From: an uncultured Gammaproteobacteria bacterium
GTDB lineage: Bacteria > Patescibacteriota > Patescibacteriia > Magasanikbacterales > JBBTQS01
Direction of reading: 5' to 3'
NCBI GenBank assembly: GCA_965230935.1
Contig: OZ246400.1
Span: 374,359-438,358 of the forward strand
Length of the DNA stretch: 64,000 nucleotides
This document shows, one piece after another, positions 33,036 to 54,129 of the stretch; within the stretch, counting starts at the first letter, position 1; each line of letters starts with the position of its first letter. The notes beneath the pieces are model-generated. The model had not been told where the DNA came from. It saw only the letters and a program-made list of their open reading frames with translations, and did not search any database. A program made the position numbers and the translations under genes.

Positions 33036-33896
33036 TTATTGTGCTCCGGGAACAGCAAACAATCGTCCTGCCCCTTTTGGATTAAATCCATTGTCAATCT
33101 CCGTACCATCACCATAACTATCGCCATCGGTATCCTCATTAAGCGGATCAGTGCCCCATGCCTCAATCTCTTCTTGATCAGTCAAACCATCGCCATCTGT
33201 ATCAGGATCTTGCGGATCAGTACCATACCCCACTTCTTCTTGATCAGTAAGCCCATCATTGTCAGAGTCAGTAATTGTCGGTTGAGTTGGCGATGGAACA
33301 GTACTCGTGGTCGCAGTTGAATCCGTGGGAGTGGTATCACCTATCGAACTGGTATCAGTAATGGAAGAATCGGTATCTGGAGTGGTTGTTGCACTACTAC
33401 TGTTTGTTGGATCAACAGCTGGAGTATCAAAAGTAAACCCACTTGGTCCGGCTGAAGATTCCTCATCTGAGTTATCCGAAGTGGCAGCTGGGGTCGGTGT
33501 AGTGGTCACAGTATCAGACGACGTGTCCAGAAATGCTCCATACGCCCACCAACCAATCCCACCAAGAATAGCAAGGATCACAATAATACCAATGATCATA
33601 AACCACTTACTTTGCGTCATTGGAGCCTTCAATTCATAAATACTCACTCCTTCGCCTGGAATACCAGTGTCTTTGGGTGAATCTGCATTCATTGGCTTAA
33701 GCTTGCCGCTTTCGAGTGCTGAAGGGCCAATGTCGACCGCTTCATATTGCGGTGGCGCACTTGGTGCTTCTGGAGCCCCTGCACCATCTGCCGGAGGTGC
33801 TTCTGGAGTTGTAGGTCCAGCACTAGGCAAATCAGAGGTTCCGGAAAACATATCATCCGGTGCATTGTTAGGAGGTTGTTGTGGCTTATCAAACAT
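33036..33896 (-). CDS. membrane-anchored surface protein with thrombospondin-type-3-like repeats
   Basis: DSDNDGLTDQEEVGYGTDPQDPDTDGDGLTDQEEIEAWGTDPLNEDTDGDSYGDG. One TM helix. Confidence 0.5.
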   Translation of the reverse strand: MFDKPQQPPNNAPDDMFSGTSDLPSAGPTTPEAPPADGAGAPEAPSAPPQYEAVDIGPSALESGKLKPMNADSPKDTGIPGEGVSIYELKAPMTQSKWFMIIGIIVILAILGGIGWWAYGAFLDTSSDTVTTTPTPAATSDNSDEESSAGPSGFTFDTPAVDPTNSSSATTTPDTDSSITDTSSIGDTTPTDSTATTSTVPSPTQPTITDSDNDGLTDQEEVGYGTDPQDPDTDGDGLTDQEEIEAWGTDPLNEDTDGDSYGDGTEIDNGFNPKGAGRLFAVPGAQ

Positions 33897-33926: not shown

Positions 33927-36900
33927 TTAAATAACTTCATGGCATTCGCTATCATCTATCGTACAACTATTTGTACAGTATAACTCTTTATCACCATCTC
34001 CGAAAAAGCCACCACCAAATGTGAAATCACCACAATCTAATCCTCCAAAATCAAACCCCTCACATTCCTCAGTAGCTTGTCGTATTCCATCTCCACAAAC
34101 ACTTCCACATTGTGACAAATCAATCTTACAACTTGAATCACATAGTGGACCACCTTCACTACAGAGCACGTCACTTGGGAAGGTGTCACCGTCACACTCC
34201 TCAGCTCCACCAAGAATTCCGTCGCCACAATACACATAGGTACACGCATCATAGTTTAAGGTGCAGTCCACATTACACTGTACGATTCCTGCAGGGAACT
34301 CAGTTGAGTTGGCACAGGTCTTTGTGCCCACGTCATTCGTGTCACACTGTTCTTGGAGTTGCTTAATCCCATCTCCACATGTTCCACCGGTTAGAGTAAC
34401 CTTTTTACAAATATTACTACAATAAGTACAACTCTCGCCATACTGCGCCGCACAAACCGAACCATTGCTTGCGCCATTGTCACACTCCTCTCCACCATTT
34501 GGCTCATGGACTCCATTACCACATACCGCAGGACTTGCACCAAGCGGTTCACTCGATTGATTTACCAAACACTTCTCTGGCAAAAGCGTACATTCATTGC
34601 TACATAATTGTACAAACTGCCCCGGAATACCATCTTTAGTACAGGCATCTCCAGTATAAATTACCCCGTCACCGCCGTCACACTCTTCTTGCGGTGACTG
34701 CTTCACTGAATCACCACAATACGGACCATACTCTTGACAGTCCCAGTTGCAAGAATTTTCTTGATCATGTGCATATATGGTTTGAGCACCGGTCGGCTTG
34801 TAGATGGTAAGCACATGACACCCACTCACACAGGGCAATCCACTCAATGGACAGGTTCCATCGGGCAGACATTGGAACTGCGTCCAACACGTATCCCCTG
34901 ATTGATCTAAACACCATTGATACGTCTTTGGTGTTCCACCGCCAACTGTTGGGAGGGTATCCATGGCAGACTGCACCTCCTCAACAGGGACAGAAGTGTA
35001 ATGCTGTGACCCATCCGTAAGGTGTGCCTTGACCTGAATGACAATACCAGGATCACACACCTCACCAAACTGGCTTTGAATTTGCCCGTCAGCACATCCA
35101 CCAAACTCGCCATAATCTGTCTGACAATCTGCCGAACAGGCATTGTAACTGCCGTTCAGTGGCCCGTCATCACATACCTCAGTTCCGGCAAGGACAATAC
35201 CATCTCCACAAAAACCAAGCGGCTGACATTGTATTTCATAATCTTCTACAAACGACGGGCTTGCCACTTGTACTGCTGAATAAAATTGACAATTTGCCGG
35301 ACATTCATAGACATACTTACCTTGGAAGCTCACCCCATTTTCATCAACCACAGAACAGCTCTTTGGATCCTGAATTCCTGAAGCACCAATTCCTCCTTCA
35401 AGGACGGTAGCACCAACGATCGTGCCAAACTCACAATCCTCATCAACATTTAATACCCCATCACCACAAATCCCACCCGGCGCTTCTGGTTGACCAGTAC
35501 AGACTGGGTTCATCATGTATTGTGCACCACTCAGGCTATTACTTGGTTTCCAACTCCATGGTGATCGCAACTCACCCTCAGCATATAGTCGATAGCCATA
35601 CACTGCGGGAGCCCCCACTTGATGTCGACGATAAGTATACACCTTTGATCCAGCCAGACATTGATAGGTCTGCGCTTGCTCATCCCAACACGTTTGATCA
35701 TCAGTTCCTTCGGCACCACAACCGGTACGATAGGCATTGAGCGGGTCCACCGGAAGCGCTTCGCCAAGTTCCTTACCTAGCACATCCTGCCATGAAGCCC
35801 ATGTGCTGACCGTTTGACCGCCAATAAAGCTCCCTTCTGTAAGCTGTGGTGGTTGACCATGTTGAATTTTGTACGCTTCAACCAACTGACCGACGTGAGC
35901 AAGATCTGCCATACGAATCACATCACGTTGTAATTGCTCATTGATCGAGCGACAGGTGAGACTATTTTCGTTGAAACCACCAGCCATCAAAGCAGTATCA
36001 TTCAAACAATCAAGTGGTGAGTTACAAATCTTGTTTTCAAAATATGATCCACTTGGTACTCCCCAAGGATTCATGTACCCACAACGGTCGATGTTGTATC
36101 CAATGGCAATATTCGTATTAAACAACATGTTTTGCAACATTTGGTTGGCAATACTCTTGGTCGATGCTGACGCGTCCTCACTGTGGGATACCACATACAT
36201 GTTGGTATACCGCTGATTAAAGCCGCTGTACGATGCGCCGGTCAGGTTTGCCGCAGCAATATACGTAGACTTCCCTTCAGTAATTGCTTGATACCCGCCG
36301 ACCTCAGTTGCCGTAGGTGAACCGGTAAAGCCTTGTTTGCTATACCAATCTTGAGCTGAGAGATGTTCCGGATTACTTAGCACCCGAACACCAATTACCT
36401 CATTGTTTTGCGGATTGCGGAAGAATACTGACTTAATCACATTCGGATCTGGGTCAGCAACATCATGAACCGTTACTGATGGCAACAGGACATGTTGTGC
36501 TTGAAGTGCTGCAATCTCTTGTGGTGTAGCACCTTCTGGTGGCGTTGGGGCGTTGTTTCCTCGACAATACCAGGTTGAAAAGTGCGTATCACTCTCTTCA
36601 TATGGGAAACTCACACCACCCAATGCCGGATCAGGTATTGGCCATGGATTTTCACACGCGGTATTTATCAATGATGCAAAACCATTGTACACCTCGCCAG
36701 TAGTACTCACTTCAGAAAGTGTATCAACCGTAATGGTGGCATTTGCCATCAAAATATCAGTTCCTTTCTCCGACTCTGGCTGTACACTAACCGAATCCCC
36801 AACCGCATCACCCACAATATGGGCAACCACATCATTTTTGAGCTCCCATGACCAATCCCAGGCATAATCATTGGTGGTGGTAATTGCAGTTGCTTGTCCA

Positions 36901-39900
36901 CCCAACATGGTCTGTGCTACCGCCACAAAATTTGCCTGACCAAGTAATCCTGATGTGGTAAACACATAGGATCCCGGCTCAACCACCACTTTGTCAATCT
37001 GACAAATCGATTCATCAGTATCAAACTGCCAATCGTAATCTGCTGCCAATCCAACGCCAATACTATTCTCTACATCAGTGGTGATTGTAGGATAATAGGT
37101 AACACCAGGCGAGAGAAGTTCTTTTGGTATTAAGAATAGCTTTGTTACTGTAGTAATATTTCCTCCCTCTGACGTTTGAATGTCAGCCAATTGAATATCA
37201 AAATCAACGGTATCAGCACATGTTACCTGTGCATAAATTGGCTCGATACTAAACCATCCACGAACAGTATTGACTACTGCAAACCAAGCACGTCGATACC
37301 ATGGATCATTTGGATTAGTTGTTGAAAGCGCAACAATACTTCCATTAAGATCAGTACACGCCTCCGGACTATCAACATCAATGTTCAACTGAATTGCTCC
37401 AGGCGCCAATACTGAATCAGGATTAATTTGATCAGTAAACTCAACACTTAACATCACATTACGACACAAATTGCTTCCGATTGGCTGCTCAGAACCTGGC
37501 ACCACTTCCGGGCGGAGGTGACAACAGGTATCAGTACCAACCCCCCAATCAGTTGCATCAGGACACTGAGCATCATGGGTAAATCCACATTGGATTGCAT
37601 AACTCCCTACCGCCTCAACGGTTCCATAATCTGCGGTGACTGAGGTGCTCCGTTTGTTGTCTTGCACCAACCCATCACAACCAGGACCAATACAATCAAC
37701 ACCGTAGACATATTGGACCGGATCAACCTTACTGTCGCCTTCAATACTCATTATTGCCGTACTATCACAACTCGTTAGCTCTCCAACTTCGACAACACCA
37801 TTTCCACAAAACGATCCATTAAGTAGTGAAGCCCCTTCGAGCAGACAATTTGCACTACACCCATCACCATCTTGGCTATTAGCATCGTCACATTGCTCCC
37901 CGTTTGAGCCGGTTACCAGCCCATCTCCACAATAAAGTCCTCCATCGCTATTCTCTGTAAGTGTATTCCCCACTAAGGTACATTGATCAGTACACACCGT
38001 AGCAAATGACTCTTGCAATATTGCACTACTTGAAGCAGCAGCAGTCTCACAAAATTCATCCTCTCCAGGCTCGATCTCACCGTTTCCACACACCGTCACC
38101 CCAACACAAGAGAAAGTCGGATCAATAAGCTTAGCTGATTCACACGCATCATACCCCGGTGCGCTTCCTGTAAGGAGGCATTGCTCACAACTCACACCAC
38201 CATCACATTCCTCACCAACCCCAATATCACCATTTCCACATTCGGAAAATGGTGATGCGGCACCAAGCCACAGACATAAAACATTGTTACATCCTTCCTC
38301 GCCATCACATGCCTCACCATAGGTGGTGTTTCCATCACCACACACACTCCCAATACCTTCAGTGTTTCCTTCCCACAAACACGAGGAGCTACACCCATCA
38401 CCATCAAAAATATTACCATCATCACAACTTTCAACCCCCTCTACGAGCAGTCCGTCCCCACACACCGGTGTACCAACCGGTTGTGACCCTTTGCCAAGAC
38501 AGCTTGGCGTACAATAAAGCGAGTTATCTACTACCGCCAGGTCAAACAAGGTCCCGTCTTGATCTTTCAATAATTCGGCGACTTTGGTATTCCCGATTGA
38601 CCAGTTCCAATTGTATGAACTTGCTTGCAGCTCTTGACCAGTGCTTGGACTACAGTCATCCGGGCTCCCAAAGGCATGTGCAGTGTATTTTTTAACAATG
38701 CCAACATGTGGGACTAATACTGACTCCGGCTCAAGTGTTGCATTCACAATATCACAGCTTGCACCACTGGTTTTGGTTCTAAACTTCCAACTGAAGTACT
38801 GCGCATTAGCAGCTCCTGATGGATACAGCTGATCTTGATTTAAACTGGTCACGGGGATTCCCACACCGCTTTGCCCTTGAATACCCAACTCGCCAACGCG
38901 CAACAACACGCGATACCATGTTGCCGGAGCCAACACGCCGGCATGTTGCAGCTTGAGCCGATTACCAAAAATAGCATCATCTTGTTCGCTCAAATCAACT
39001 GATACCGGCTCAGCATTAAGCAGCGTACCAGGAGTGGCCAATCCATCTGCGCCGACTTCAATCAAACATGACTCGTTTGCACACGGCACTACCAATACAT
39101 GCGCACCAATAGTTGAGTCTGTGGTGATGTCTTTCAAATTAACGTTAGTGGAGAAATCCATGGTGATCGCCACATTTGAACATGCCGTACTACAAGTTGG
39201 GCCAACTGTACTGATTGCCGGAGGAGCGACAGTAATATGCAATGCCCCGCTGCCAGTGCGCTCTTCTGTAGTTGCGCTGATCTCAGCCGGTGTTTCCGGA
39301 TCTGTTTGATTATTTGCTACTACGTTCTGTGTTGCACCAACGCTGATCAACTCACCTGCAGTACCACCATCAGGGTGTGCCAACAATGCCTTATCAACAT
39401 CACTGACCTCCCAATCCCAACTGTATTGATTGCCATCAAGTACAATACACACATCAGCAGCAAGTGGATTTGCTTTCCAATCCACCGGCGCAGTGTCACC
39501 ATCGTCATTAATTACTTTTTCAACCAAACCAAATTCATCAGCCGTATAATCAGTTGGTGTGACATTTACATCATTAACGGCACACGCCTGATCACTTACT
39601 CGTGTTTTAAATGTGAAACAATATGATTCATTGTCGCCCAAAGTACAGCTTGCCAATGGCTCCATTGCAACACCGGAAAGACTTTCAAGATCAGTGGTAA
39701 CGGCCACACGATACCACGAGTCGGTATCCCAGCCATCATGCACTTCACCTACTCCAGCGGCATTAAGACGAAGCTGTACACCATCGTGATCTTCGTCTTG
39801 TGAGAAAAATGTATATACACTTGGCAAATGCGGACCAACCTCACTACACGGATCATCGCCTCCTGCAGTACATTTTTGCACGTACACTGCATCATTATGG

Positions 39901-42900
39901 AAGGTGGCCGGGTTCATGAGTTGAGAAAACACCATGTTTACCACACTGTTTACACACACATCATTCCCACCACCATTACCAACCCATGGAGTTGGACTTT
40001 GGATATTGTCACTACATTGCTGCAACACTTGCGGCGCACCGTAATGAACCATGATCTCACTTACATCATCGTAACTACTGTCGAGCTCAACCACACTCAA
40101 TTGATTTGGCACGACCACAAGCTGTCCGGCGGTGTTCAGTTCTTTTTGACTCTCGCCAGTAACCTCAACATATTGCTTACAGGCGATTGGATTTGGTAAA
40201 TCATGCGGAAGTATCACTTGCGGATCATCACTTTGCCACTGCCAAGTAAATTGATCTGAACACGAGTTAAGAATGAAACATTCTGATTCTTTTGCTAATG
40301 CATATGCATTCCAGCTCAACGGCTCCTCAACATCCACTTCTAGACCGTCAGCATCAAGTACGGTTTGCACATTCGGATTGAGAATCAACCCTGTGCCACT
40401 TTGCAGCTGATCAGTGTTGCTGATCTCATATGCAGCGGGCTCAACTTGGACAGAACCGATGGTACATGAGTTGCCACTCTCACTGGTCTTAAATGCATAA
40501 CAATACACACTATCTTCGTCTAGTGCCGTTCCTGCACAGCTCCCATTTCCAACAAGACTTAAGCCTTTACTCAAGCTACTAATTCCACTGCTTAATCCAA
40601 CCATGTACCACGTATCGCTCTTGAAGTTTGCCAGTGGATACACTCGCAAATAACTCTGCAATCCATCAGGACCAATCTCCGAATCATAGTCAAACTGGTT
40701 CTGCAATGCGACCTGTCCATGTTCAACTGTCTCACACGCAACGGTCGAATCCTCACTAGCACCTAAACATTCATACACTTGCACTGACCCCAGTTTTCCT
40801 TGATTAATCGAAATAGTACTTTCATCAATGGCAATCGAAAACTTCACCCCAATTGATGCGGTTGAACACACTGACGTGCCACCAGGATGATTTTCCCATG
40901 GTGTTGGTGATGGCAATGCTCCACCGCCACATTCTTCAATCACTACCGGTGGGAAATCCTCGGTATCCGGTGTCTTATTACCGGTATAGAATGTGTAGGC
41001 ATAGGCAGCTTCTTCAACATTAAAATTGTCACACGTCTGCGGTACCTGTTTCCCCTCAACAAACGTAAAGTTATTAATACATGAACCCGTATTACAACAA
41101 GTTTGCTGATCAGTACAAATATCAGCATCATTATTACAATTTTGTACAGTAAACAAGGCAGTATTGCTGTCTGCGTCAGATGCATTAGTCATCTTAACCG
41201 GACCAGTAGCCGCGCCTGTTGGCACAGGAGTATACAGTTTTTCTTCCTGCCAATTATCATCAACTATCGGCGCATCAACATCTTTCCAATAAGTAATCGT
41301 TCCGGTTTGATCACCAAAGCCCTCCCCATGAATAAACACATCAGTGCCCTCTGGACCATTATTCGGTACTAATGCACATACCCCTGGAGTTGGAAGACCA
41401 TCAACCACTTCAAACGGCACACTATTACTGACGTCATTGTCTGGGTCATTGTCTGCATCATTGCGCACTACGGCGATATGATAGTTGCCCAAATCTGTTT
41501 CAGGCACTTTGACCACAATTGACTTTTCAGACCATACTCCTGCAGCTGTACACATTGGTGGGAAATCAAAATTACCGAGCACCTCAATATCAGTTGGTGC
41601 ACCACCTGCATCAAGTTTGATAAACTTCACCACATTCTGGAAGTACCCAAAATTGTTTCCGGAAATAGTAATGTATTGGTCTTTTGGTCCTTGTCCACGA
41701 CTAAGCGAAGCAATGGTTGGCGCCGGAGAATCCCCTTCACCAAGTACGGTAAACGGCAACGGATTACTTTGTTTCTCTTGAACGAGTACATCAGCAAGAA
41801 AATTCCCAACTGAGATTGCCGGCACCGTAGCGCTTACTTGGGATAACGCCGGACCATCACCAATGATGGCTGATTGTCCACTAAAGCGAACATCAAGTTC
41901 TGATTTGGTAACACTAAGGTTTTTGCCGTAAAACGTCACTAATGCACCAGGAAGTTCGGCATTTGGCATAACACTACACAATCCTGGTATTGCCGGATCC
42001 GGTTCAGTAATGGTGAGTGCATTTGGCAGATACGCACCACGATCATCAGTTGTACTATCAGCACCATGAACATTCTTGACTACCACAGGATAGACCTGAT
42101 CAACGGTCAAACCACCTGGGACTTCGATAATAATCGCTGTTTCAGTCCAGCTACTGGTTCCGGCAAAACATTGCGCTTGTGAAACCGGAATCTCTACTAC
42201 TGTCTCCCCACTTTGATCAAGTAACTCCACACTTCCCTCACTACCAAAATAATCACCCAAAATCGTCACCCACTGGCTTTGACCCGCAGATTCAGGAGTC
42301 ACTGAATTAATGATTGGCAAATTCACACATTGCCCGCCCTCTGGAATTGGGTCAGCCGCTGCGGTCCACTTGAGTGTGGCACCATAGATTGCAAAGAGAT
42401 CTTCAAATTCACACTGATTACAGCCAATATATGCGCGCACCTTATCTGATTCATTTTCAAACGCATGGGTTACGGTATATTTAGTCCAAGTATCCGTTAA
42501 GGAAATGGTATTCGCTTTAAACTCATAATTTTGTCCGGGAGCAGTGCTGAGCAATAAGGTGATCGCATTTGGCGAGTCAAGACCGGGGTCTTTCTTTGCC
42601 CATAAACTGAGCTCAAAGGTGTTGCCTTGGGTCTTTTGTTCAAATTGACGATCCATGAATTTGCTATCAGCATCACCGGATTGCATAAGAACGGCATTGC
42701 CCTCACCTGCCGGACTTGAATAGTCATTTTGTCGGATGAATAACCCTAAAGCGATATTCCATGCATCAAACGCAACAGAATCCTCCATAAACGTCTTTGG
42801 CGGCTTTGGCAAATTCAAACATACTCCGGAAGCGCATTGGCTATTATCTTCACACGAACTTCCTGAACATTGCCCACAACTTCCTCCCGGTGGGCTACAG

Positions 42901-44099
42901 TCTTTCCCGGTCTCATCAGTATTCGGTGTCTGTTGATCGTCAAAACAATGCGCAGGGGCAACTTTCACATTTACAGCATCAGACGTAGTTTGATGATCGT
43001 CAACGTCATAGGCCACTGCGGTCACATCAACAAACGCACCAAGACTCAAACCTGTGGTATTCCAACTATTGGTACTCACCACCTGCGGGAACGGAAGATT
43101 AAAATCAACACTCACCGTATCGATAAGATCAGCGCCAGCATAAAATTCAACCAAACTAACACCAAGGTCATCATTTACTAGTGCATCAACTTGTACACTT
43201 GCCCCCTGAGGAATCTGTCCACCATCATCTGGTTGAGTAATACTTACTGTTGGCGCCTCAAGGTCAAGCTGGTCACCGGTCGTAAATGTGCCGGTACACG
43301 CGCTTCCCAACCCACAAGAAACCAGCTTATCACCAACTGACCGCACCCCCTTCGTTTGCGAACTATTCACTTCAACCGTGTACTTTTGATTCTTATCTAA
43401 ACATCCGGTCGTTGGTTCAGGTGCATCAACACAATCGGCAGTTGGTTTGAGTGTTACCATGCTTCCATTGGTCTCATAATCCACATCTACCAGCGCATGC
43501 TCCCCGGTTTTACGCAAGGTAATACCTCCATCCTCAGCCGTATTTTCTTCAACGTCATCATTAAACACAATATGAACACTCACATTATAGTTTGGCAAGG
43601 CCCCACTTGGTACAATATCTTCCACAATAAAGTTGACAACTGTCCCGTTACCACAATTAGTGATACATCCATTGCTATCACCATCACCATCTAAATCAAA
43701 AATGGTCCCGGTCGCTTCACCAAATTCCTTCAACACAAAATGCGTAATGGAAAACGCGGTCATCACAATCAAAAGTCCGATCCCAGCCTGTAATAAAATC
43801 CTTTTTGCAAGATTAATCCGATCTTCGTTTCCGCCCGCAGTCATCCACATGAAGCCGGCATAAAGCACAATAACCACTCCAATGATCCCCAAAAATCCTA
43901 ATACCACACGTACAATCTTGGCAATCGTCACTTTAAGATCTTGATTCCCCAATCCTGTCTCTTGCTGAAAATCAGCAAGGTCAGTATCGATCTGCGCAAA
44001 TGTAGAAGTTTCGATCCCGAAAAGCGCAAACACCACGACCAAGACTGCTCCGAGAATGAGCATGCGCTTCCACACAATTGTTGAATGCGTTGTGGTCAT
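33927..44099 (-). CDS. giant surface protein (3390 aa): VirB2/TrbC-pilin-like N-terminal domain, Ig-like region, C-terminal Cys-rich repeat region
   Basis: Uninterrupted 10.2 kb ORF. N-terminus has a signal peptide then two hydrophobic helices. About 15 C-terminal repeats of CG[DN]G..E.CDDGN...DGCS..C. Confidence 0.8.
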   Translation of the reverse strand: MTTTHSTIVWKRMLILGAVLVVVFALFGIETSTFAQIDTDLADFQQETGLGNQDLKVTIAKIVRVVLGFLGIIGVVIVLYAGFMWMTAGGNEDRINLAKRILLQAGIGLLIVMTAFSITHFVLKEFGEATGTIFDLDGDGDSNGCITNCGNGTVVNFIVEDIVPSGALPNYNVSVHIVFNDDVEENTAEDGGITLRKTGEHALVDVDYETNGSMVTLKPTADCVDAPEPTTGCLDKNQKYTVEVNSSQTKGVRSVGDKLVSCGLGSACTGTFTTGDQLDLEAPTVSITQPDDGGQIPQGASVQVDALVNDDLGVSLVEFYAGADLIDTVSVDFNLPFPQVVSTNSWNTTGLSLGAFVDVTAVAYDVDDHQTTSDAVNVKVAPAHCFDDQQTPNTDETGKDCSPPGGSCGQCSGSSCEDNSQCASGVCLNLPKPPKTFMEDSVAFDAWNIALGLFIRQNDYSSPAGEGNAVLMQSGDADSKFMDRQFEQKTQGNTFELSLWAKKDPGLDSPNAITLLLSTAPGQNYEFKANTISLTDTWTKYTVTHAFENESDKVRAYIGCNQCEFEDLFAIYGATLKWTAAADPIPEGGQCVNLPIINSVTPESAGQSQWVTILGDYFGSEGSVELLDQSGETVVEIPVSQAQCFAGTSSWTETAIIIEVPGGLTVDQVYPVVVKNVHGADSTTDDRGAYLPNALTITEPDPAIPGLCSVMPNAELPGALVTFYGKNLSVTKSELDVRFSGQSAIIGDGPALSQVSATVPAISVGNFLADVLVQEKQSNPLPFTVLGEGDSPAPTIASLSRGQGPKDQYITISGNNFGYFQNVVKFIKLDAGGAPTDIEVLGNFDFPPMCTAAGVWSEKSIVVKVPETDLGNYHIAVVRNDADNDPDNDVSNSVPFEVVDGLPTPGVCALVPNNGPEGTDVFIHGEGFGDQTGTITYWKDVDAPIVDDNWQEEKLYTPVPTGAATGPVKMTNASDADSNTALFTVQNCNNDADICTDQQTCCNTGSCINNFTFVEGKQVPQTCDNFNVEEAAYAYTFYTGNKTPDTEDFPPVVIEECGGGALPSPTPWENHPGGTSVCSTASIGVKFSIAIDESTISINQGKLGSVQVYECLGASEDSTVACETVEHGQVALQNQFDYDSEIGPDGLQSYLRVYPLANFKSDTWYMVGLSSGISSLSKGLSLVGNGSCAGTALDEDSVYCYAFKTSESGNSCTIGSVQVEPAAYEISNTDQLQSGTGLILNPNVQTVLDADGLEVDVEEPLSWNAYALAKESECFILNSCSDQFTWQWQSDDPQVILPHDLPNPIACKQYVEVTGESQKELNTAGQLVVVPNQLSVVELDSSYDDVSEIMVHYGAPQVLQQCSDNIQSPTPWVGNGGGNDVCVNSVVNMVFSQLMNPATFHNDAVYVQKCTAGGDDPCSEVGPHLPSVYTFFSQDEDHDGVQLRLNAAGVGEVHDGWDTDSWYRVAVTTDLESLSGVAMEPLASCTLGDNESYCFTFKTRVSDQACAVNDVNVTPTDYTADEFGLVEKVINDDGDTAPVDWKANPLAADVCIVLDGNQYSWDWEVSDVDKALLAHPDGGTAGELISVGATQNVVANNQTDPETPAEISATTEERTGSGALHITVAPPAISTVGPTCSTACSNVAITMDFSTNVNLKDITTDSTIGAHVLVVPCANESCLIEVGADGLATPGTLLNAEPVSVDLSEQDDAIFGNRLKLQHAGVLAPATWYRVLLRVGELGIQGQSGVGIPVTSLNQDQLYPSGAANAQYFSWKFRTKTSGASCDIVNATLEPESVLVPHVGIVKKYTAHAFGSPDDCSPSTGQELQASSYNWNWSIGNTKVAELLKDQDGTLFDLAVVDNSLYCTPSCLGKGSQPVGTPVCGDGLLVEGVESCDDGNIFDGDGCSSSCLWEGNTEGIGSVCGDGNTTYGEACDGEEGCNNVLCLWLGAASPFSECGNGDIGVGEECDGGVSCEQCLLTGSAPGYDACESAKLIDPTFSCVGVTVCGNGEIEPGEDEFCETAAASSSAILQESFATVCTDQCTLVGNTLTENSDGGLYCGDGLVTGSNGEQCDDANSQDGDGCSANCLLEGASLLNGSFCGNGVVEVGELTSCDSTAIMSIEGDSKVDPVQYVYGVDCIGPGCDGLVQDNKRSTSVTADYGTVEAVGSYAIQCGFTHDAQCPDATDWGVGTDTCCHLRPEVVPGSEQPIGSNLCRNVMLSVEFTDQINPDSVLAPGAIQLNIDVDSPEACTDLNGSIVALSTTNPNDPWYRRAWFAVVNTVRGWFSIEPIYAQVTCADTVDFDIQLADIQTSEGGNITTVTKLFLIPKELLSPGVTYYPTITTDVENSIGVGLAADYDWQFDTDESICQIDKVVVEPGSYVFTTSGLLGQANFVAVAQTMLGGQATAITTTNDYAWDWSWELKNDVVAHIVGDAVGDSVSVQPESEKGTDILMANATITVDTLSEVSTTGEVYNGFASLINTACENPWPIPDPALGGVSFPYEESDTHFSTWYCRGNNAPTPPEGATPQEIAALQAQHVLLPSVTVHDVADPDPNVIKSVFFRNPQNNEVIGVRVLSNPEHLSAQDWYSKQGFTGSPTATEVGGYQAITEGKSTYIAAANLTGASYSGFNQRYTNMYVVSHSEDASASTKSIANQMLQNMLFNTNIAIGYNIDRCGYMNPWGVPSGSYFENKICNSPLDCLNDTALMAGGFNENSLTCRSINEQLQRDVIRMADLAHVGQLVEAYKIQHGQPPQLTEGSFIGGQTVSTWASWQDVLGKELGEALPVDPLNAYRTGCGAEGTDDQTCWDEQAQTYQCLAGSKVYTYRRHQVGAPAVYGYRLYAEGELRSPWSWKPSNSLSGAQYMMNPVCTGQPEAPGGICGDGVLNVDEDCEFGTIVGATVLEGGIGASGIQDPKSCSVVDENGVSFQGKYVYECPANCQFYSAVQVASPSFVEDYEIQCQPLGFCGDGIVLAGTEVCDDGPLNGSYNACSADCQTDYGEFGGCADGQIQSQFGEVCDPGIVIQVKAHLTDGSQHYTSVPVEEVQSAMDTLPTVGGGTPKTYQWCLDQSGDTCWTQFQCLPDGTCPLSGLPCVSGCHVLTIYKPTGAQTIYAHDQENSCNWDCQEYGPYCGDSVKQSPQEECDGGDGVIYTGDACTKDGIPGQFVQLCSNECTLLPEKCLVNQSSEPLGASPAVCGNGVHEPNGGEECDNGASNGSVCAAQYGESCTYCSNICKKVTLTGGTCGDGIKQLQEQCDTNDVGTKTCANSTEFPAGIVQCNVDCTLNYDACTYVYCGDGILGGAEECDGDTFPSDVLCSEGGPLCDSSCKIDLSQCGSVCGDGIRQATEECEGFDFGGLDCGDFTFGGGFFGDGDKELYCTNSCTIDDSECHEVI

Positions 44100-44100
44100 A

Positions 44101-46002
44101 TTATGGTGTTAACTCACATGCCGTACCTTGCGGATTCCCATTACAACAATACGGTCCACCATTTCCATTACACGCTGACAAGTTATCATCAGCTGCTGGC
44201 AAGAAACAGTTATATGCTGCATCCATAATGGTTGATGGCAAATATGGTGCATAGACTGCATTTTCGGCCATTGGAGTACCATGATGCAGGTAAAAATCAG
44301 ACCGCGTGTCGTAAAAATCAAACACTGGACTCCCCGCTTCAAGTGCCACATCAACGAATAATTTAGAAAATCCAACACCAAAATCAGCCGGATCAGCCCC
44401 CAACATCACATCTGAAAAACTACTGGTCATCATTGGTTTACTAAAGCCAATCACTGGATCGAGTGTAAGATCAACTTTGGTCTGCTGAATGCTTGGCGCC
44501 AATGATACTACTTGTGGCGGGAGTAAATCTTTATCTCCTGAAGTTAAGAAAGTAAATGAAAAATCGTCAGCTGGCGGGCCTGACGCCACACCATCAACTT
44601 CGCCAGCATTAACCCCTCCACCATCCATTGAGTTACCAACCACATCAACCACACCATGATAGCCTAGTGGTTCAACCAATGGATGATATTTTCCGGTTGG
44701 ATCATCACTTCCGGGATTTTTTAAATCTGCTGCTTTGGTATATACCTGAATCGTGGATTCACCCGGCAAACAGTAGACATCCTTGCCACAGCTATTGGTT
44801 CCGCAGAAATTCTCTGGATCGTCTGCTTGAAATTCGACAGTTCGGTAGCCATTGGTAATACGATACGTTCCTTTGACTGGTGTCACACTCAGCGCATCAG
44901 GATCACCAGTTACCGCGCCAATCACAATATTGTTGAACCCATCAACAACTTTTCCGCTTACTGCGGTTGGATAAATCGCTTCGTTAAACGTAATACTTAC
45001 CGCGATATTCTTAGGCAGCTCTTTCTCTGTAGTCATGTTAGGAAATGTGCTCTCCACAACCGGAGGCGTTACATCAACCACAGTATTAACCATAAACTCC
45101 CAATCATAATCCGGCTCAGTTAAGGTGAAGAGCGATTTGCCATTGGTGTTTTTGATCTCACTGGTCAACGTGACTTGGTAATGCGTATCAACCAAGGATG
45201 AGCCAAGCAGATCAACCGGGGTAAAGATAAAGGTTTTCTTATCTGCCCCCATAACCACATTCACTGCCGTGACCTTGTATTTATCCGGGTCAATCGGATC
45301 TCCGCCTGCGGCCGCTGCGACGTCAGCAGCAATCTCATCATCACTTGGCAAACGCTCAATATCAACTGCTTCGATGCGAAGCTCATCATAGATCATACTA
45401 TCGCCACTTTCCTGAGGGGTGCCGAGTGGTGTGGTCTTACCAGCCGGTGCTTGCATCACTGATGCCGGTTCTACTGGAATCTTGAAGGTCACCATAATTG
45501 GTGTGTTTCGTGGGATATCAACTGCATTACGATCTGGATAATGCGACTCAATAATTGTTCCTAGTGCTGAGCTGTTTCCAAATGAGATACCACCGCTTGC
45601 AGATCCTGAACCTGAATTTCCTTTTCCGATGTCGTTAAAACTCGTAATGACAAATTGCACAATGGTAAATGCGCTCATGATAATGAGTAAGCCAACGCCC
45701 GCATTAATCAAAATCCGCTTTGCTTTGGCTATTTTATCTTCATTTCCATTTGCCGTCATCCAAATAAACCCACCCCACATCACAATAACCGCTGCAATAA
45801 TACCCAAAAATCCGAGCAGAACTCGGACGATTTTTGCGATCGTTACTTTAATATCTTGATTACCTAATCCGGTCTGCTGCTGAAAATCCTGCAAGTCAGT
45901 ATCAATTTGTGCGTGTGCGATTTCCGGTACAACCACCAAAAAACTTGCCACTACTGCAGCACCCAGAGCTCCATACATGATCTGTTGTAATCGTTTAGGC
46001 AT
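44101..46002 (-). CDS. surface protein (633 aa) with paralogous VirB2/TrbC-pilin-like N-terminal domain
   Basis: The first ~110 residues are about 70% identical to the giant protein N-terminus (AQIDTDL.DFQQ.TGLGNQD.KVTIAKIVRV.LGFLGII...). Confidence 0.7.
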   Translation of the reverse strand: MPKRLQQIMYGALGAAVVASFLVVVPEIAHAQIDTDLQDFQQQTGLGNQDIKVTIAKIVRVLLGFLGIIAAVIVMWGGFIWMTANGNEDKIAKAKRILINAGVGLLIIMSAFTIVQFVITSFNDIGKGNSGSGSASGGISFGNSSALGTIIESHYPDRNAVDIPRNTPIMVTFKIPVEPASVMQAPAGKTTPLGTPQESGDSMIYDELRIEAVDIERLPSDDEIAADVAAAAGGDPIDPDKYKVTAVNVVMGADKKTFIFTPVDLLGSSLVDTHYQVTLTSEIKNTNGKSLFTLTEPDYDWEFMVNTVVDVTPPVVESTFPNMTTEKELPKNIAVSITFNEAIYPTAVSGKVVDGFNNIVIGAVTGDPDALSVTPVKGTYRITNGYRTVEFQADDPENFCGTNSCGKDVYCLPGESTIQVYTKAADLKNPGSDDPTGKYHPLVEPLGYHGVVDVVGNSMDGGGVNAGEVDGVASGPPADDFSFTFLTSGDKDLLPPQVVSLAPSIQQTKVDLTLDPVIGFSKPMMTSSFSDVMLGADPADFGVGFSKLFVDVALEAGSPVFDFYDTRSDFYLHHGTPMAENAVYAPYLPSTIMDAAYNCFLPAADDNLSACNGNGGPYCCNGNPQGTACELTP

Positions 46003-46037: not shown

Positions 46038-46484
46038 TTACGTTCCCAAGGCTTCTTGCAATAATTGACGTACCCGAGAACCATCAGCTTGGCCAGCGAT
46101 CTTTTGCATCACTGAACCCATACAGGTATTGATTGCTGGCGCCTCAGTTTGGTCAATTACTTCTTGTATTATAGCACGAATTTGCTCATCTGACAGCTCC
46201 TCAGGAAGAAAGCTGCTAAGCACTTGCACCTCCGCTCGTGTTTTGGCAACTAGATCCTCTCGCCCGCCTTTTTCAAATTCAACCAGTGCGTCTTTAAGTT
46301 GCTTGGCTTGACTCTTTACTACTTTTTGCACTGCTACTTCGTCCAGCTCCTTGTCCTGCTTGCGCAATTCAATTTCTTGATTTGCAATCGCGGTTTTTAA
46401 CAAACGAAGCACGGATAGATCCGGCTCTTTTTTTTCTCGCATGGCGCTCACCATGGCTGATGTTATAGTGTCTTGAAGTCCCAT
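46038..46484 (-). CDS. GatB/YqeY domain protein
   Basis: Typical GatB/YqeY family pattern (LKTAIANQEIE...LSSFLPEELSDEQIRAII). Confidence 0.75.
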   Translation of the reverse strand: MGLQDTITSAMVSAMREKKEPDLSVLRLLKTAIANQEIELRKQDKELDEVAVQKVVKSQAKQLKDALVEFEKGGREDLVAKTRAEVQVLSSFLPEELSDEQIRAIIQEVIDQTEAPAINTCMGSVMQKIAGQADGSRVRQLLQEALGT

Positions 46485-46568
46485 ATACTCCTCTTAATTT
46501 ACGTATTCAGTATACGCGAGATGCAAAACAAAAACAACCTCTCATGAGGTTGTTTTTGCGCCAAGTAA

Positions 46569-46820
46569 CTATCTGCGTCGGCCGCCACGGCGTTTGCGCA
46601 GATCTTCTTCTTTGATCTTACCGGTTTTAATGCCGTATTCAATCTTACTCGTCTTGTCCAAGCGCAATAACTTTGATGCTTTCAACTTGTTTTTGTTTGG
46701 ATCACGCTTATAAAACTGCTTCTTTTTGACTTGCAACAGCTTACCGCTCATTTTCATGGTGTTGCGAAATCGACGCAAAAGCGCTTCAAAACTTTCATTC
46801 TTTTTTCGTTTGACTTCTAT
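46569..46820 (-). CDS. rpsU: 30S ribosomal protein S21
   Basis: MIEVKRKKNESFEALLRRFRNTMKMSGKLLQVKKKQFYKRD... Confidence 0.8.
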   Translation of the reverse strand: MEVKRKKNESFEALLRRFRNTMKMSGKLLQVKKKQFYKRDPNKNKLKASKLLRLDKTSKIEYGIKTGKIKEEDLRKRRGGRRR

Positions 46821-46850
46821 CATATCAGTCACCTCACTTCCCAAAGATTA

Positions 46851-48206
46851 CTATTTATTTTTTGTTACCTTTTGTTTTTTGACAATCTTCTTGAACTCCT
46901 CAACCACATTGTCATACGGTACCACCTCTTGATTGCCTGATTCCATATCACGTACAATAACTGTATTATCTTGAACCTCTTTTTGTCCAACTAACAATAC
47001 ATGCGAAATACCAAGCTCATTTGCAATTTCAAGCTGCGCTTTAAGTGATCCTTTTCCAAATGCCTCAGCAAGTGTGAACTTTGCCTCGCGCAAGGTATTG
47101 TATAGCGCCAATGCACGACGACGTCCAGATTCACCAAGTTGCGCCACAAAAATCTGCGGTGCACGTGGGCTTTTCATCTTCACTTTCTGCTCTTTCATGG
47201 CAAGGATTGTACGATCAATTCCTGGCGCGACTCCAACACCTGGCGTTGGCTTGCCGCCAATGGTCTCGATTAAAGGATCATACCGCCCACCACCACATAA
47301 CGCGATTTGCGCTTTATCCTCTGCATCAGTAGCGACAAACTCAAATACGGTATTGTTGTAATAATCAAGCCCACGGACAATAAATGGATCTAAGAAATAT
47401 GGAATCTCGAGCTCATCAAGATATTCCAACACTGCCATAAAGTGGTCTTTGGACTCTTTACTCAGCCAATCTAAGATCTGTGGCGCTTCACTGCGCACTT
47501 CGCGACACTGCTCTTCTTTACAATCAAGTAGGCGAAGTGGATTACGCACCAAACGCTTTTGACAATGCTCACACAACTCTTTTTTGCGAGGACGATACCA
47601 TTGCACCAATTCCATCTTATATCGTGTGCGATCCTCAGCCGAACCAATACTATTGATATGCACACGCGTTGAAAGACCAAGTTCTTTAAAGAACAAATAC
47701 GTAATCAAAATAATTTGTGCATCCATGATTGGCGCGTCGCTCCCGATAATTTCGAAGTCTGTTTGCCAAAACTGACGATATCGCCCTGCTTGTGGACGAT
47801 CGTGACGAAATGCTGGCCCCCAAACCCACAACTTTTGTGGTTGTGGACGGTTAAACATGCCGTTGTTAACATACGCACGACAAATCGATGCGGTCCATTC
47901 TGGGCGAAGCGCCAACTTGGTCTTCTCATCCTTATCAAGAAAATTGTACATTTCCTTCTCAACAATATCAGTTGCCTTACCAACGGTACGCACAAAAAGT
48001 TCTTCATGCTCAACAACCGGTGTTTCAATTCGAGAAAAACCAAACTGATCCATGAGCTTTTGCGCCACTTCAAAACACTTTCGCCAATACCGTTCATCTT
48101 CCGGCAAAATATCACGCATACCCCGAACAGTCTTCGGGGTTCTGATTTTCTTTTTCTTTGGCACATCAGCTTTAGCTGATGCCTTTTTGTCAGCTGCTTT
48201 TGGCAT
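46851..48206 (-). CDS. hisS: histidyl-tRNA synthetase
   Basis: VRGMRDILPED...FSRIETPVVE is the class II HisRS signature. Confidence 0.9.
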   Translation of the reverse strand: MPKAADKKASAKADVPKKKKIRTPKTVRGMRDILPEDERYWRKCFEVAQKLMDQFGFSRIETPVVEHEELFVRTVGKATDIVEKEMYNFLDKDEKTKLALRPEWTASICRAYVNNGMFNRPQPQKLWVWGPAFRHDRPQAGRYRQFWQTDFEIIGSDAPIMDAQIILITYLFFKELGLSTRVHINSIGSAEDRTRYKMELVQWYRPRKKELCEHCQKRLVRNPLRLLDCKEEQCREVRSEAPQILDWLSKESKDHFMAVLEYLDELEIPYFLDPFIVRGLDYYNNTVFEFVATDAEDKAQIALCGGGRYDPLIETIGGKPTPGVGVAPGIDRTILAMKEQKVKMKSPRAPQIFVAQLGESGRRRALALYNTLREAKFTLAEAFGKGSLKAQLEIANELGISHVLLVGQKEVQDNTVIVRDMESGNQEVVPYDNVVEEFKKIVKKQKVTKNK

Positions 48207-48208
48207 GA

Positions 48209-48847: not shown

Positions 48848-49020
48848 GCGAACCGATAATTGGCAAGAATCAAAGGAAATACGCTAAAAATACATTGACC
48901 GCTCCATTTCTGGGCGGTCAGCGTGTTGTATTTAATTGATTGTTGGCCTCCTTGGCCCTCTTCTCCTTCCTTGGTCTTCTATTTGGTTTTGACCACCGCC
49001 TTCGCAGCGGGCGGCGTGTC

Positions 49021-49389: not shown

Positions 49390-49460
49390 GGCACCTCCAA
49401 AGCCTACACCAGCTGCGATCCCTCATCGCTGCGTTGGTAAACCAGACTCCTTTATTACCA

Positions 49461-49490: not shown

Positions 49491-49504
49491 TAGATTAAGC
49501 AATT

Positions 49505-51217: not shown

Positions 51218-51229
51218 AGCGCTTTCGCC

Positions 51230-54085: not shown

Positions 54086-54129
<44 letters not shown>

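Follow-up and report, generated by a model that had tools for sequence, protein, structure and literature searches.

Why should a giant surface protein begin like a pilin? The question is raised by two adjacent genes, M and G, in a window of 64 kb (the whole stretch of DNA analysed, 64,000 nucleotides) from an ultra-small, ABY1/Uhrbacteria-like bacterium of the Patescibacteria (CPR). A sequence-only reading had credited both products with an N-terminal hairpin of the VirB2/TrbC pilin type, and its guess at an episymbiont-like organism fits the relatives of M and G, which are Patescibacteria. The two ORFs, of 633 and 3,390 aa, are present as that reading described them (Table 1); the TAA stop of M is followed after 1 base by the ATG of G, the two being translationally coupled.

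Table 1. Coordinates, in the window, of genes M and G, their parts and their neighbours
Feature	Coordinates	Strand	Basis and remarks
Housekeeping block: signal peptidase I (48209-48847), HisRS, S21, YqeY	46038..48847	-	Pfam; upstream of M, co-oriented
Gene M	44101..46002	-	ORF and translation; 633-aa modular pilin-like surface protein
M signal peptide, aa 1-31	45910..46002	-	Predicted cleavage between AHA and Q; hydrophobic segment 5-31
M pilin hairpin, aa 32-125	45628..45909	-	Acidic N-tail, helix 1, GNEDK loop, helix 2; PF18895 43.6 bits, residues 49-118
M Gly/Ser-rich flexible linker, about aa 126-146	45565..45627	-	pLDDT <50 at residues 125-140
M extracellular body	44104..45564	-	Beta-rich, Ig-like; Pfam Big_5 in 4 stretches; AF2 beta-sandwich string
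Gene G	33927..44099	-	ORF and translation; 3,390-aa giant modular pilin-like surface protein
G signal peptide, aa 1-35	43995..44099	-	Predicted cleavage between TFA and Q; hydrophobic segment 5-37
G pilin hairpin, aa 36-129	43713..43994	-	N-terminus alone: PF18895 31.7 bits, PF04956 TrbC 20 bits
G extracellular body	33930..43712	-	Big_5/Big_7 aa 171-330, TIG aa 595-984, Big_5-like modules, two Cys-rich acidic blocks
G IPT/TIG region, about aa 595-984	41148..42317	-	PF01833 61.1 bits on whole protein, plus segment matches
G Cys-rich acidic repeat block 1, about aa 1880-2110	37770..38462	-	CGDG..E.CDDGN..DGCS..C by regex; TIGR02232 67.1 bits; DUF4215
G Cys-rich repeat block 2, C-terminal end, about aa 2878-3390	33930..35468	-	DUF4215; repeat starts 2878-3335
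286-aa TSP3 protein	33036..33896	-	PF18884 TSP3_bac 56.8 bits; downstream of G
414-aa protein	31788..33032	-	One hydrophobic stretch; TSP3-like DxDxDG motif by eye

M consists, in order, of a signal peptide, the pilin hairpin, a Gly/Ser linker, a string of Ig-like domains and a small Cys-rich C-terminal knot; its AF2 model has a pLDDT of 86, M scores 37.9 bits with PF18895 and 62.9 bits with Big_5 in Pfam, and the PF18895 plus PF13205 architecture is common to nearly all of its 88 homologues. Whole G matches TIG, Big_5, Big_7, DUF4215 and PF18895. Both signal peptides had been said to end in AxA, which holds for M, where across the 12 closest family members A31 never changes and Q32 hardly ever does, but not for G, whose site is of the form TxA. 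The layout then follows the earlier description: the motif QIDTDLxDFQQxTGLGNQD and two hydrophobic helices with a GNED(K/R) loop between them, modelled by AF2 in M as helices 49-83 and 88-128 with a pLDDT of about 90. The expected N-terminal identity of about 70% is that of the mature hairpins (M 32-125 and G 36-129, about 94 aa each, ungapped), and over 113 aa the N-termini are 65% identical (E 8e-50). The similarity goes far beyond hydrophobicity.

Is the hairpin really a pilin? Scanned alone, both hairpins exceed the gathering cut-off of PF18895 (T4SS_pilin; 26.6 bits), and the earlier reading of a VirB2/TrbC-type hairpin fused to large extracellular bodies, which had proposed such a profile comparison, is supported; neither M nor G reaches the cut-off of PF04956 (27.9 bits). 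By BLASTP, the nearest relatives of the hairpin are 55 free PF18895 pilins of Patescibacteria, 95-141 aa long and 35-63% identical (up to 56% for the top match, and as high as 60% when hairpin columns are counted); 30 of 53 of these relatives match PF04956 TrbC/VirB2 at E≤1e-3, the best at 1.9e-9. Fused and free forms have invariant Gly, Trp/Met/Thr and GNEDK positions in common, 50 of 82 consensus residues are identical, and per-column conservation is correlated (Spearman 0.61), Gly positions and loop included. A fused hairpin resembles free pilins (identity 0.55) no less than it does the fused hairpins of other genomes (0.51), and in both proteins conservation is highest in the hairpin, at 52% in M (37% in the body) and about 53% in G (26-40% in the body). 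The fused hairpins keep the residue constraints of free pilins, short loop included. A hairpin profile picks up 26,327 cluster representatives at E≤1e-10. A profile search of the PDB had 0 hits, and Foldseek gave no significant match to solved pilins (best E 0.33; 8dfu, E 4.4), the hairpin being too simple a fold for such a search.

Beyond the hairpin, both proteins run on through a flexible Gly-rich linker into a long body that is rich in beta structure and Cys, acidic, and free of any second membrane segment. Free pilins terminate a few residues past helix 2, and the linker of M, with the family consensus GGGGxGxG, begins at the same point. Five of the 8 Cys of the M body lie in its final 35 residues, and its best Foldseek matches are the S-layer proteins SbsC (4uic, E 1.6e-8) and Bacillus anthracis Sap, with low TM-scores of about 0.15. 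The G body is strongly acidic (457 D+E against 132 K+R), contains 146 Cys and has no further hydrophobic segment; its CGDG repeats, put at about 15 by the sequence-only reading, number 14 when starts of the form C[GA][DN]G are counted, of which 13 are CG[DN]G. Pfam found no SLH or other cell-wall-binding domain in M or G.

The pair is kept in at least 74 related species. A giant hairpin-bearing ORF comes after M in 74 of 74 related loci that continue past M, and G orthologues are collinear in 74 of 79 related giants. Hairpins of M and G are more alike within a genome (mean identity 0.64) than between genomes (0.51-0.53). In codons for identical residues the third position agrees in a fraction of 0.50, which gives no hint of a recent gene conversion. 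The surroundings are also fixed, with signal peptidase I (70 of 79 related loci), HisRS (71/79), S21 (72/79) and YqeY (50/79) upstream and a TSP3 protein, YbeY, FtsA and FtsZ downstream; the cassette is inherited vertically in this housekeeping neighbourhood. No VirB4, VirB6, VirD4 or other T4SS gene was found within the window, nor any T4SS family at the four related loci whose gene calls carry Pfam annotation. Of the two downstream TSP3 membrane proteins announced earlier, the Pfam match bears out the 286-aa one, which has a Pro-rich N-terminus, one hydrophobic stretch, a Thr/Ser-rich stalk and TSP3 Ca-binding repeats; a homologue lies directly after G in 10 loci with a visible G end and BLAST detection and also in L002, L003 and L004, and it is a probable cassette partner. 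The 414-aa protein matched no family in Pfam; a gene of about 403 aa occupies its position in L002 and L003, and it is a possible partner. The single hydrophobic stretch of each, read by eye, may be a transmembrane segment.

How do M and G compare with known systems? With the VirB2-like PF18895 pilins of Patescibacteria, such as the arrays of Southlakia epibionticum and TM7x (Quinonero-Coronel et al. 2025, PMC12102498; Wang et al. 2023, PMC10633639), they have in common a signal peptide, the two-helix hairpin and the motifs GFLGIIA...GGFxWMTAxGNEDK...AKK. Known free members end after 95-141 aa, whereas the M and G hairpins carry a C-terminal body of 500 or 3,260 aa; free pilins often stand in tandem arrays, frequently near virB4 (one array, in L006, has 11 PF18895 genes of 123-325 aa), whereas M and G form a fixed pair in a housekeeping locus. 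Pilins inside one array have a mean identity of just 25% (PMC12102498), far below the about 51% of M/G hairpins between genomes. Fused forms of these pilins are not described in the literature that could be searched. In the TrbC/VirB2/TraA conjugative pilins of diderm T4SSs (PF04956), too, a long signal peptide precedes two hydrophobic helices that form a hairpin around a short basic loop; in the canonical pilins both termini are outside, with the loop turned towards the cytoplasm or the pilus lumen. The sequence link to them runs through the relatives of M and G; M and G themselves stay below the cut-off, have no adjacent T4SS operon, belong to a monoderm and could not undergo head-to-tail cyclisation unless the body were cleaved off. 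To the profile of the Mycoplasma ICE pilin-like protein (NF045849, Mbov_0395/MMCAP2_0565 family), also from a monoderm, the hairpin can be aligned at 72 of 80 positions, and NCBI has already given this name to some M homologues; the scores, 35.9 and 32.2 bits, are under the equivalog cut-off of 40, and the Mycoplasma proteins are small and come from genes on mobile elements.

Other systems resemble M and G in role or design. The VirB5 tip protein and PrgB-type adhesins would be functional analogues, T4SS surface elements contacting the target cell, but they are not pilin fusions and have no sequence or fold relation to M and G. Modular type IV pilins such as PilB and PilC of Streptococcus sanguinis, and minor pilins with grafted adhesive domains, join a polymerisation module to a large C-terminal-side adhesive module and are incorporated at low stoichiometry, the same design principle; they belong to another superfamily, with a class III signal peptide, an N-terminal alpha-1 helix and T4P machinery, whereas the signal of M and G is of the SPase I type and their hairpin of the VirB2 type. 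Strings of Ig-like/Big_5 domains are also found in the S-layer proteins SbsC and Sap, and the giant membrane-associated proteins of CPR bacteria such as Vampirococcus are thought to serve host attachment (PMC8080830). A pilin-hairpin anchor is unreported for any of these, and M and G are without an SLH or cell-wall-binding domain.

The explanation that we favour, tentatively and at a little less than an even chance, is that M and G are modular VirB2-type pilins, cooperating surface proteins that display Ig-like and Cys-rich adhesive bodies on a T4SS pilus or its base. After cleavage of a Sec-type signal peptide between A and Q, the hairpin would insert with both termini outside, the acidic N-tail outside and the +2 GNEDK..KAKR loop inside, so that the entire body would be exported and exposed. 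The hairpins of M and G would bind each other, the free pilins of the cell and its pilin-handling machinery, presumably VirB3/VirB6/VirB4 homologues encoded elsewhere; through this association M and G would be displayed on the pilus, either as minor subunits or as those of its first layer (the tip), or else where the pilus is rooted, at the base. VirB2 is recruited by VirB3/VirB6 through its TM helices, and the conjugative pilus grows from the base under a pre-assembled tip, a mode of growth that accounts for the position of VirB5 at the tip (PMC12624023, which also covers TrbC/VirB2/TraA-type pilin biogenesis). Membership of PF18895, free pilins as nearest relatives, the high conservation of the hairpin with its free-pilin pattern, and the conserved cassette in fixed synteny count for modular pilins. 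Fusion at the natural C-terminus of free pilins, with a disordered Gly linker next, does so too, as does the within-genome likeness of the two hairpins. Against display on a pilus, a passenger of 3,260 aa is sterically incompatible with a major pilin subunit, and the free pilins adjoining the cassette in L030 and L057 are only about 25% identical to the fused hairpins, which also speaks against modular pilins, as do the fold and PDB searches that gave no significant hit. We know of no experimental observation of a pilus built of PF18895 proteins.

The strongest competing explanation, which we regard as quite possible, though less probable, is an S-layer-like envelope protein anchored by the hairpin. 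The hairpin would be an exapted module for membrane anchoring and heterodimerisation only, and M (short Ig-like stalk), G (giant canopy or fibre) and the Ca-binding TSP3 proteins would form a T4SS-independent coat, for which Sulfolobus SlaA/SlaB is a two-component analogue. In structure M comes closest to S-layer proteins, yet TM-scores of this order are those of generic Ig-like strings, and no wall-binding domain accompanies them. The cassette sits in a housekeeping operon by ftsA/ftsZ and T4SS genes never adjoin it in the examined loci; translation and cell-division genes suit a constitutive envelope protein, and the missing T4SS genes, like the S-layer-like body of M, count against modular pilins. 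The coat also gains from the core-feature conservation of G after M, from a G body that is collinear and orthologous, not shuffled, and from hairpin co-variation, which is equally consistent with an M-G membrane heterodimer; S-layer proteins have already been predicted in Patescibacteria (bioRxiv 10.1101/2024.05.28.596244). What speaks for more than an anchor is the hairpin itself: one TM helix, such as the neighbouring TSP3 proteins seem to use, is enough for anchoring, but here two helices and a short cytoplasmic loop are held to free-pilin residues as the most conserved part of M and G.

Could the fusion instead be a precursor, made for co-export or stoichiometry only and cut in or after the Gly-rich linker into a free pilin and a released or wall-associated giant? 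TrbC/VirB2 pilins are C-terminally trimmed, in RP4 by the S26-family peptidase TraF; the disordered linker begins where free pilins end, and in 70 of 79 loci the conserved block has a gene for an S26 signal peptidase at its head. But that gene, separated from M by HisRS, S21 and YqeY, resembles the housekeeping lepB of a reduced genome, the low-complexity linker varies in length and sequence among genomes and has no conserved cleavage motif, and the precedents trim short tails, not domains of 500-3,000 aa, which makes a polyprotein improbable. Least probable by far is chance resemblance, a signal peptide followed by two generic hydrophobic helices unrelated to pilins. The silent fold search, the empty PDB search and the low PF04956 scores would suit it, but the curated PF18895 scores, the BLASTP identity to free pilins and the PF04956 matches of these relatives effectively refute it, as the shared invariant residues and the reach of the hairpin profile also argue; a generic signal-anchor plus TM helix, named by the earlier reading as the alternative, does not fit a hairpin that is the most conserved part of the protein and keeps the free-pilin pattern.

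If M and G are modular pilins, what would they add to the cell? To our knowledge, VirB5 has not been reported in Patescibacteria. PrgB-type adhesins are undetected there as well (PMC12102498), and for these two reasons the T4SS of the phylum would otherwise be without an adhesin. Among 3,035 genomes of the phylum, 2,417 encode VirB4 and 1,948 encode VirB2-like pilins (PMC12102498), and in Southlakia the pilin array is essential (PMC10633639). M, as a short Ig-like stalk, and G, as a host-cell-binding fibre, would supply the missing adhesin, and the pair may be the long-sought host-attachment gear of Patescibacteria.

The 633-aa surface protein (M) and the 3,390-aa giant (G) are encoded by neighbouring genes in which, on inspection of the sequence, a single base separates the TAA of M from the ATG of G; because of this one-base gap, both genes are almost certainly co-transcribed and translationally coupled. 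The sequence-only reading, which had described two ORFs with related signal-peptide and hairpin N-termini, was right in all essentials, as seen from the ORFs, the hydropathy profiles and the AF2 models. Its figure of about 70% identity between the N-termini also held, since BLASTP aligned them at 65% identity over 113 aa (E 8e-50) and the mature 94-aa hairpin domains are 70% identical without gaps. Both proteins start with an SPase I-type signal peptide, and the AxA ending proposed for them applies to the predicted cleavage site of M (AHA↓Q32) and not to that of G (TFA↓Q36). An acidic tail, QIDTDLxDFQQxTGLGNQD, follows in both, and then a pair of long hydrophobic helices with a short GNED(K/R)..AKR loop between them; by hydropathy, the signal peptide and these two helices are the only hydrophobic segments. 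The AF2 model of the hairpin bears out the predicted layout, with helices at 49-83 and 88-128 and a pLDDT of about 90. Canonical VirB2/TraA pilins adopt an N-out, loop-in, C-out topology. From this analogy and from the distribution of charge in the hairpin, whose N-tail is acidic and whose inter-helix loop carries a net +2, we deduce that it would be oriented likewise, placing the whole body outside.

Which family does the hairpin belong to? The expected relationship to pilins was found with PF18895 (T4SS_pilin; gathering score 26.6 bits) and not with PF04956 (TrbC/VirB2; gathering score 27.9 bits). Against PF18895, the N-domain of M scored 43.6 bits alone and 37.9 bits in the whole protein, both above the gathering score, and that of G scored 31.7 bits alone, also above it, and 21.9 bits inside the 3,390-aa protein. 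Against PF04956, the N-domain of G remained below the gathering score (20 bits, E 8e-4) and that of M gave no match. A database search with the N-domain alone retrieved 55 proteins, all of 95-141 aa and all with PF18895, the named ones being from Patescibacteria or Uhrbacteria; BLASTP identity to these free pilins, that is, stand-alone PF18895 proteins without a C-terminal body, was 35-63% (56% for the top match). Among 53 aligned relatives, all 53 matched PF18895 and 30 matched PF04956 at E<=1e-3 (best 1.9e-9). An exhaustive profile search reached 75,862 cluster representatives at E<=1e-3 and 26,327 at E<=1e-10. One free pilin with 52% identity, P0002, is encoded among 11 PF18895 genes arranged in tandem, like the "pilin arrays" reported for Patescibacteria (PMC12102498). 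The Mycoplasma ICE model NF045849 (Mbov_0395/MMCAP2_0565 pilin-like conjugal transfer protein) aligned over nearly its full length to both hairpins, with scores (M 35.9 bits, G N-domain 32.2 bits) below its equivalog cut-off of 40 bits. Structural comparison brought no confirmation, a helical hairpin being too generic: a HMMER profile of the hairpin family had no match among PDB sequences at E<=10, and Foldseek with the AF2 hairpin, a fold too simple to discriminate, found nothing significant in the PDB (best E 0.33), with the A. pernix conjugation pilus 8dfu at rank 14 (E 4.4) amid many unrelated helical hairpins. On the basis of the PF18895 scores, the free-pilin relatives and their PF04956 matches, we assign the hairpin as a bona fide member of the VirB2-like pilin family of Patescibacteria; its link to classical VirB2/TrbC is indirect, yet solid at the family level.

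M and G share with PF18895 proteins the signal peptide followed by a hydrophobic two-helix hairpin of ~70 aa with a short charged loop. Whereas free pilins are ~100-140 aa long and end soon after helix 2, M and G continue, and the fusion point is where free pilins end. The fused forms constitute a distinct conserved subfamily. Other proteins of this family, encoded outside the window, carry up to 17 tandem hairpins per polypeptide: P0147 (1,775 aa) has 17 PF18895-matched stretches and P0144 (552 aa) has 6 clear hairpin repeats when read by eye. These 'poly-pilins' we take as further unreported modularity in the family.

In M, a disordered Gly/Ser linker (AF2 pLDDT below 50 at 125-140) leads to a row of confidently modelled Ig-like Big_5 domains, and the C-terminus forms a small Cys-rich knot (mean pLDDT 86). 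The body of G contains Big_5, Big_7, several IPT/TIG and further Big_5-like modules, together with two Cys-rich acidic repeat blocks (TIGR02232/DUF4215); with 146 Cys and 457 D+E versus 132 K+R, its content and composition are typical of an extracellular fibre stabilised by disulfides and Ca. A phmmer search of G against the PDB gave a weak Ig-domain match only, a 676-aa piece of its body had no match at E<=1e-10 in a 5.8-billion-protein database, and no PADLOC defence model was matched. Residues ~400-600 of G seem to be a lineage-specific insertion because just 11-13% of giant orthologues cover them, and a weak CBM_4_9-like match there (E 0.019) could indicate a carbohydrate-binding module. 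Another segment, ~2723-2815, is kept in 40 giant orthologues with the pattern LQRDVIRMADL...YK...PQL..GS....T.S.W.SW...LG..LG..LPVDPLN...C. By eye it resembled a type IV pilin or pseudopilin reduced to its soluble head, the hydrophobic helix being absent; this idea was rejected, as neither Pfam nor a 16-sequence PDB profile search supported it.

The best Foldseek matches of the M body were the S-layer proteins SbsC (4uic/4uj6, E about 2e-8) and Sap (9g93, E about 1e-4), with TM-scores of just about 0.15, low as expected for flexible Ig strings. S-layer proteins have the same kind of tandem Ig-like body, but they self-assemble into a 2-D lattice and possess a dedicated module for attachment to the cell wall (such as SLH or CWB2), and no such Pfam domain is found in M or G. 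Sortase-anchored (LPXTG) adhesins of Gram-positive bacteria end in the motif, a hydrophobic segment and a basic tail, whereas M (...ACELTP) and G (...SECHEVI) do not, and hydropathy shows no hydrophobic segment past residue 123 of M or 124 of G. Finally, type IV pilins and T2SS pseudopilins have a class III signal peptide (G↓F/M-TLxE) with a hydrophobic alpha-1 helix at the N-terminus; M and G present instead a two-helix hairpin after an SPase I-type AxA↓Q site, and match no T4P Pfam family.

The pair of genes (hereafter the cassette) is widely conserved. In databases, 88 M homologues were found, about 400-990 aa in length and almost all combining PF18895 with Big_5, from Uhr-, Falkow-, Magasanik- and Buchananbacteria, under names such as 'Ig-like domain-containing protein', 'pilin' or 'Mbov_0395 family pilin-like conjugal transfer protein'. 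A locus scan with a 12-sequence alignment as query and one genome per species returned at least 562 candidate relatives, free pilins perhaps among them, of which the best 80 were examined. Each of the 74 loci reaching past M has as its next gene a giant ORF with an N-terminal pilin hairpin (1,143 to >3,500 aa), and in the remaining 6 the sequence ends there. Upstream of M and in the same orientation lie genes for SPase I (70/79 loci), HisRS (71/79), S21 (72/79) and YqeY (50/79); downstream, in loci that show the end of G, a TSP3 protein is followed by YbeY, FtsA and FtsZ, the same order as in the window. Across the Uhr-/Magasanik-/Komeili-/Falkowbacteria group, no fewer than 74 related species genomes have the cassette at a single chromosomal location adjoining ftsA/ftsZ. 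The G orthologues from these loci have collinear bodies (~90% coverage, 26-40% identity), only residues ~400-600 being lineage-specific, and G takes up about 1% of a ~1-Mb genome. Conserved pairing, fixed synteny and collinear G bodies together mark the cassette as a core component, passed down vertically in a large clade of Patescibacteria (labelled ABY1-like on the basis of organism names), and not a mobile or sporadic adhesin gene. In 70/79 loci (L008-L086), the first gene of the syntenic block upstream of M encodes signal peptidase I (S26). TraF, the maturation peptidase of the RP4 TrbC pilin, is an S26 enzyme; the gene in the window is most likely just the housekeeping lepB. Many public MAG records with this Patescibacteria-specific cassette (L007, L008, L011, L012 and others) are titled 'uncultured Gammaproteobacteria bacterium', one Methylomirabilis and one Udaeobacter, which look like placeholder or wrong labels.

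The hairpin is the best-conserved part of both proteins (52% identity versus 37% for the body in M, about 53% versus about 28% in G). Per-column conservation correlates between fused hairpins and free pilins (Spearman 0.61), with identical consensus residues at 50 of 82 columns, and the common pattern covers the packing glycines and the loop motif; the similarity of fused hairpins to free pilins (0.55) is on a par with that to the fused hairpins of other genomes (0.51). Inside one genome, the mean identity between the M and G hairpins is 0.64, while between genomes it is 0.51 for M-M, 0.53 for G-G and 0.51 for M-G, orthologous pairs being just ahead of cross pairs (1,616 of 2,701 comparisons). 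Recent gene conversion as the source of this likeness is unlikely in the window genome, because in codons for identical residues the third positions of the two hairpins are just 50% identical (0.50); older events are possible. A dedicated adjacent partner pilin finds no support either, as the free pilins adjoining the cassette in two loci (L030 and L057) show no particular likeness to the fused hairpins (about 25% identity). We favour the view that the hairpin keeps specific contacts with a partner hairpin, and it probably contacts the same partners as free pilins do.

What could such contacts serve? TrbC/VirB2 conjugative pilins polymerise into an extracellular helical pilus, and VirB4 pulls them from the membrane. 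Our preferred reading, put forward tentatively, takes M and G as modular VirB2-type pilins that would be co-assembled with pilins and display a host-binding element on the T4SS pilus. Sec would export both proteins, the hairpin would hold them in the membrane (N-out/C-out), and they would assemble jointly and together with free pilins, M as an Ig-like stalk and G as a giant fibre, displayed at the tip, shaft or base of the pilus, where the display would serve for host binding. The identity of the domain, the fused architecture, its conservation and the co-variation of the hairpins are observed; pilus incorporation and host binding are what we infer here. In model T4SSs, VirB3/VirB6 recruit VirB2 through its TM helices, and the tip is pre-assembled with the pilus growing beneath it (PMC12624023). 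About 80% of Patescibacteria genomes encode VirB4, VirB2-like pilins are present in 1,948 assemblies, and no PrgB-like adhesin was detected in the phylum (PMC12102498); in the saccharibacterium Southlakia, the pilin array is essential (PMC10633639). The bolder proposal, in which M and G supply the Patescibacteria T4SS pilus with its missing adhesin or tip subunits, their hairpins seeding or capping the free-pilin filament, is rather unlikely. If true, the T4SS, which most Patescibacteria genomes possess and which is essential in Southlakia, would be primarily a host-attachment and host-access organelle bearing a fibre of >3,000 aa, this would be the first VirB2-type conjugative pilin carrying giant passenger domains, and poly-pilins, with up to 17 hairpins, would be another outcome of the same modularity.

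Genes of TrbC/VirB2 pilins lie within or next to a T4SS cluster (virB4, virB3, virB6), whereas the M/G locus has none. No T4SS family was found among the ORFs of the 64-kb window, in four related loci whose genes carry Pfam annotation, or in about 9 kb past one window end on the source contig (ERZ930065 k127_33187, 185 kb), and in about 70/79 loci the 3 kb upstream of M is the SPase-HisRS-S21-YqeY block. This lack of T4SS genes nearby, the housekeeping synteny and the S-layer-like fold of M all agree with the main alternative, which is possible, if somewhat doubtful, namely that the hairpin was exapted as an anchor and heterodimerisation module of a constitutive S-layer-like envelope. However, that the hairpin is the best-conserved part, keeps the free-pilin pattern and is so alike in M and G of one genome is evidence against a passive anchor. 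Processing of M and G as precursors is an improbable explanation, and a chance resemblance of the hairpin to pilins, to be set against the profile scores and the free-pilin relatives, is hardly credible.

The window contains further features (see table). A diversity-generating retroelement (DGR) was found in which, on the coding strand, all mismatches between template and variable repeats are template adenines altered in the variable repeat. It lies, with methyltransferases, in a stretch of lower GC (0.38-0.42) bounded by a tyrosine integrase, probably an integrated element or a defence island. The rRNA genes appear unlinked, because no 23S rRNA was found anywhere in the 64-kb window, and a second integrated element may occupy the site expected for the 23S gene; there, a GC-rich (0.54) stretch adjoins a large serine recombinase.

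Features of the window, with positions in nucleotides
Feature	Position	Strand	Remarks
Lower-GC stretch	~5500-21300		
DGR	8466-10981	-	
DGR reverse transcriptase ORF	8466-9491	-	PF00078
DGR template repeat (TR)	9883-9995	-	113 nt
DGR target ORF	10181-10981	-	266 aa; VR in C-terminal part; no Pfam match
DGR variable repeat (VR)	10378-10490	-	113 nt
NgoFVII-like restriction enzyme	12581-13864		in lower-GC stretch
C5 cytosine methylase	13716-14681		in lower-GC stretch
Toprim primase-like gene	16907-19099		in lower-GC stretch
Tyrosine integrase	20041-21177		abuts tRNA-Asp
tRNA-Asp	21213-21287		
Repeat protein, 410 aa	21589-22821	-	thrombospondin type 3 and Dicty_CTDC Cys-rich repeats; in GC-rich stretch past tRNA-Asp; antisense overlap with 400-aa ORF without Pfam match
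G	33927-44099	-	ORF, 3,390 aa
G residues ~2723-2815	35650-35930	-	conserved segment
G residues ~400-600	42300-42900	-	apparent insertion
M	44101-46002	-	ORF, 633 aa
Signal peptidase I (S26)	48209-48847	-	
Possible second integrated element	48900-52651		
ORF in GC-rich stretch	49505-50428		no Pfam match
ORF in GC-rich stretch	50642-51502		no Pfam match
Large serine recombinase	51230-52651	+	Resolvase and Recombinase domains; adjoins tRNA-Ile
tRNA-Ile	52630-52706	-	after intron-like RNA
Group I intron-like RNA	53110-53944	-	after 16S; RF00028, 48.7 bits, just below gathering score 50
LAGLIDADG homing-endonuclease ORF	53134-53820	-	inside intron-like RNA
16S rRNA	53900-55407	-	

The PF18895 family and its abundance in Patescibacteria were already known, and M-family proteins are deposited in databases under generic names. 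In a limited literature check, covering a T4SS survey (PMC12102498), a T4SS nomenclature review, Southlakia genetics (PMC10633639), a giant-gene survey and the Vampirococcus paper, no published description was found of a pilin hairpin joined to a large or giant body, or of the cassette. Much of bacterial diversity belongs to Patescibacteria/CPR, which are presumed to live attached to host cells. To our knowledge, their attachment machinery is essentially undescribed beyond Saccharibacteria; equally, as far as we know, their T4SS and VirB2-like pilins are widespread, and essential in the one genetically tractable species, with the adhesin or tip protein not yet found. Because both are surface proteins fused to a pilin module, kept at one conserved position in at least 74 genomes, and because G alone takes such a share of the genome, the M and G pair is a concrete candidate for a host-contact structure of Patescibacteria. 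The concept of modular pilins would thereby extend from type IV pili to conjugative-type pilins and, if the hairpin is an anchor only, the cassette would still be a strong envelope or S-layer candidate and an example of an exapted pilin.
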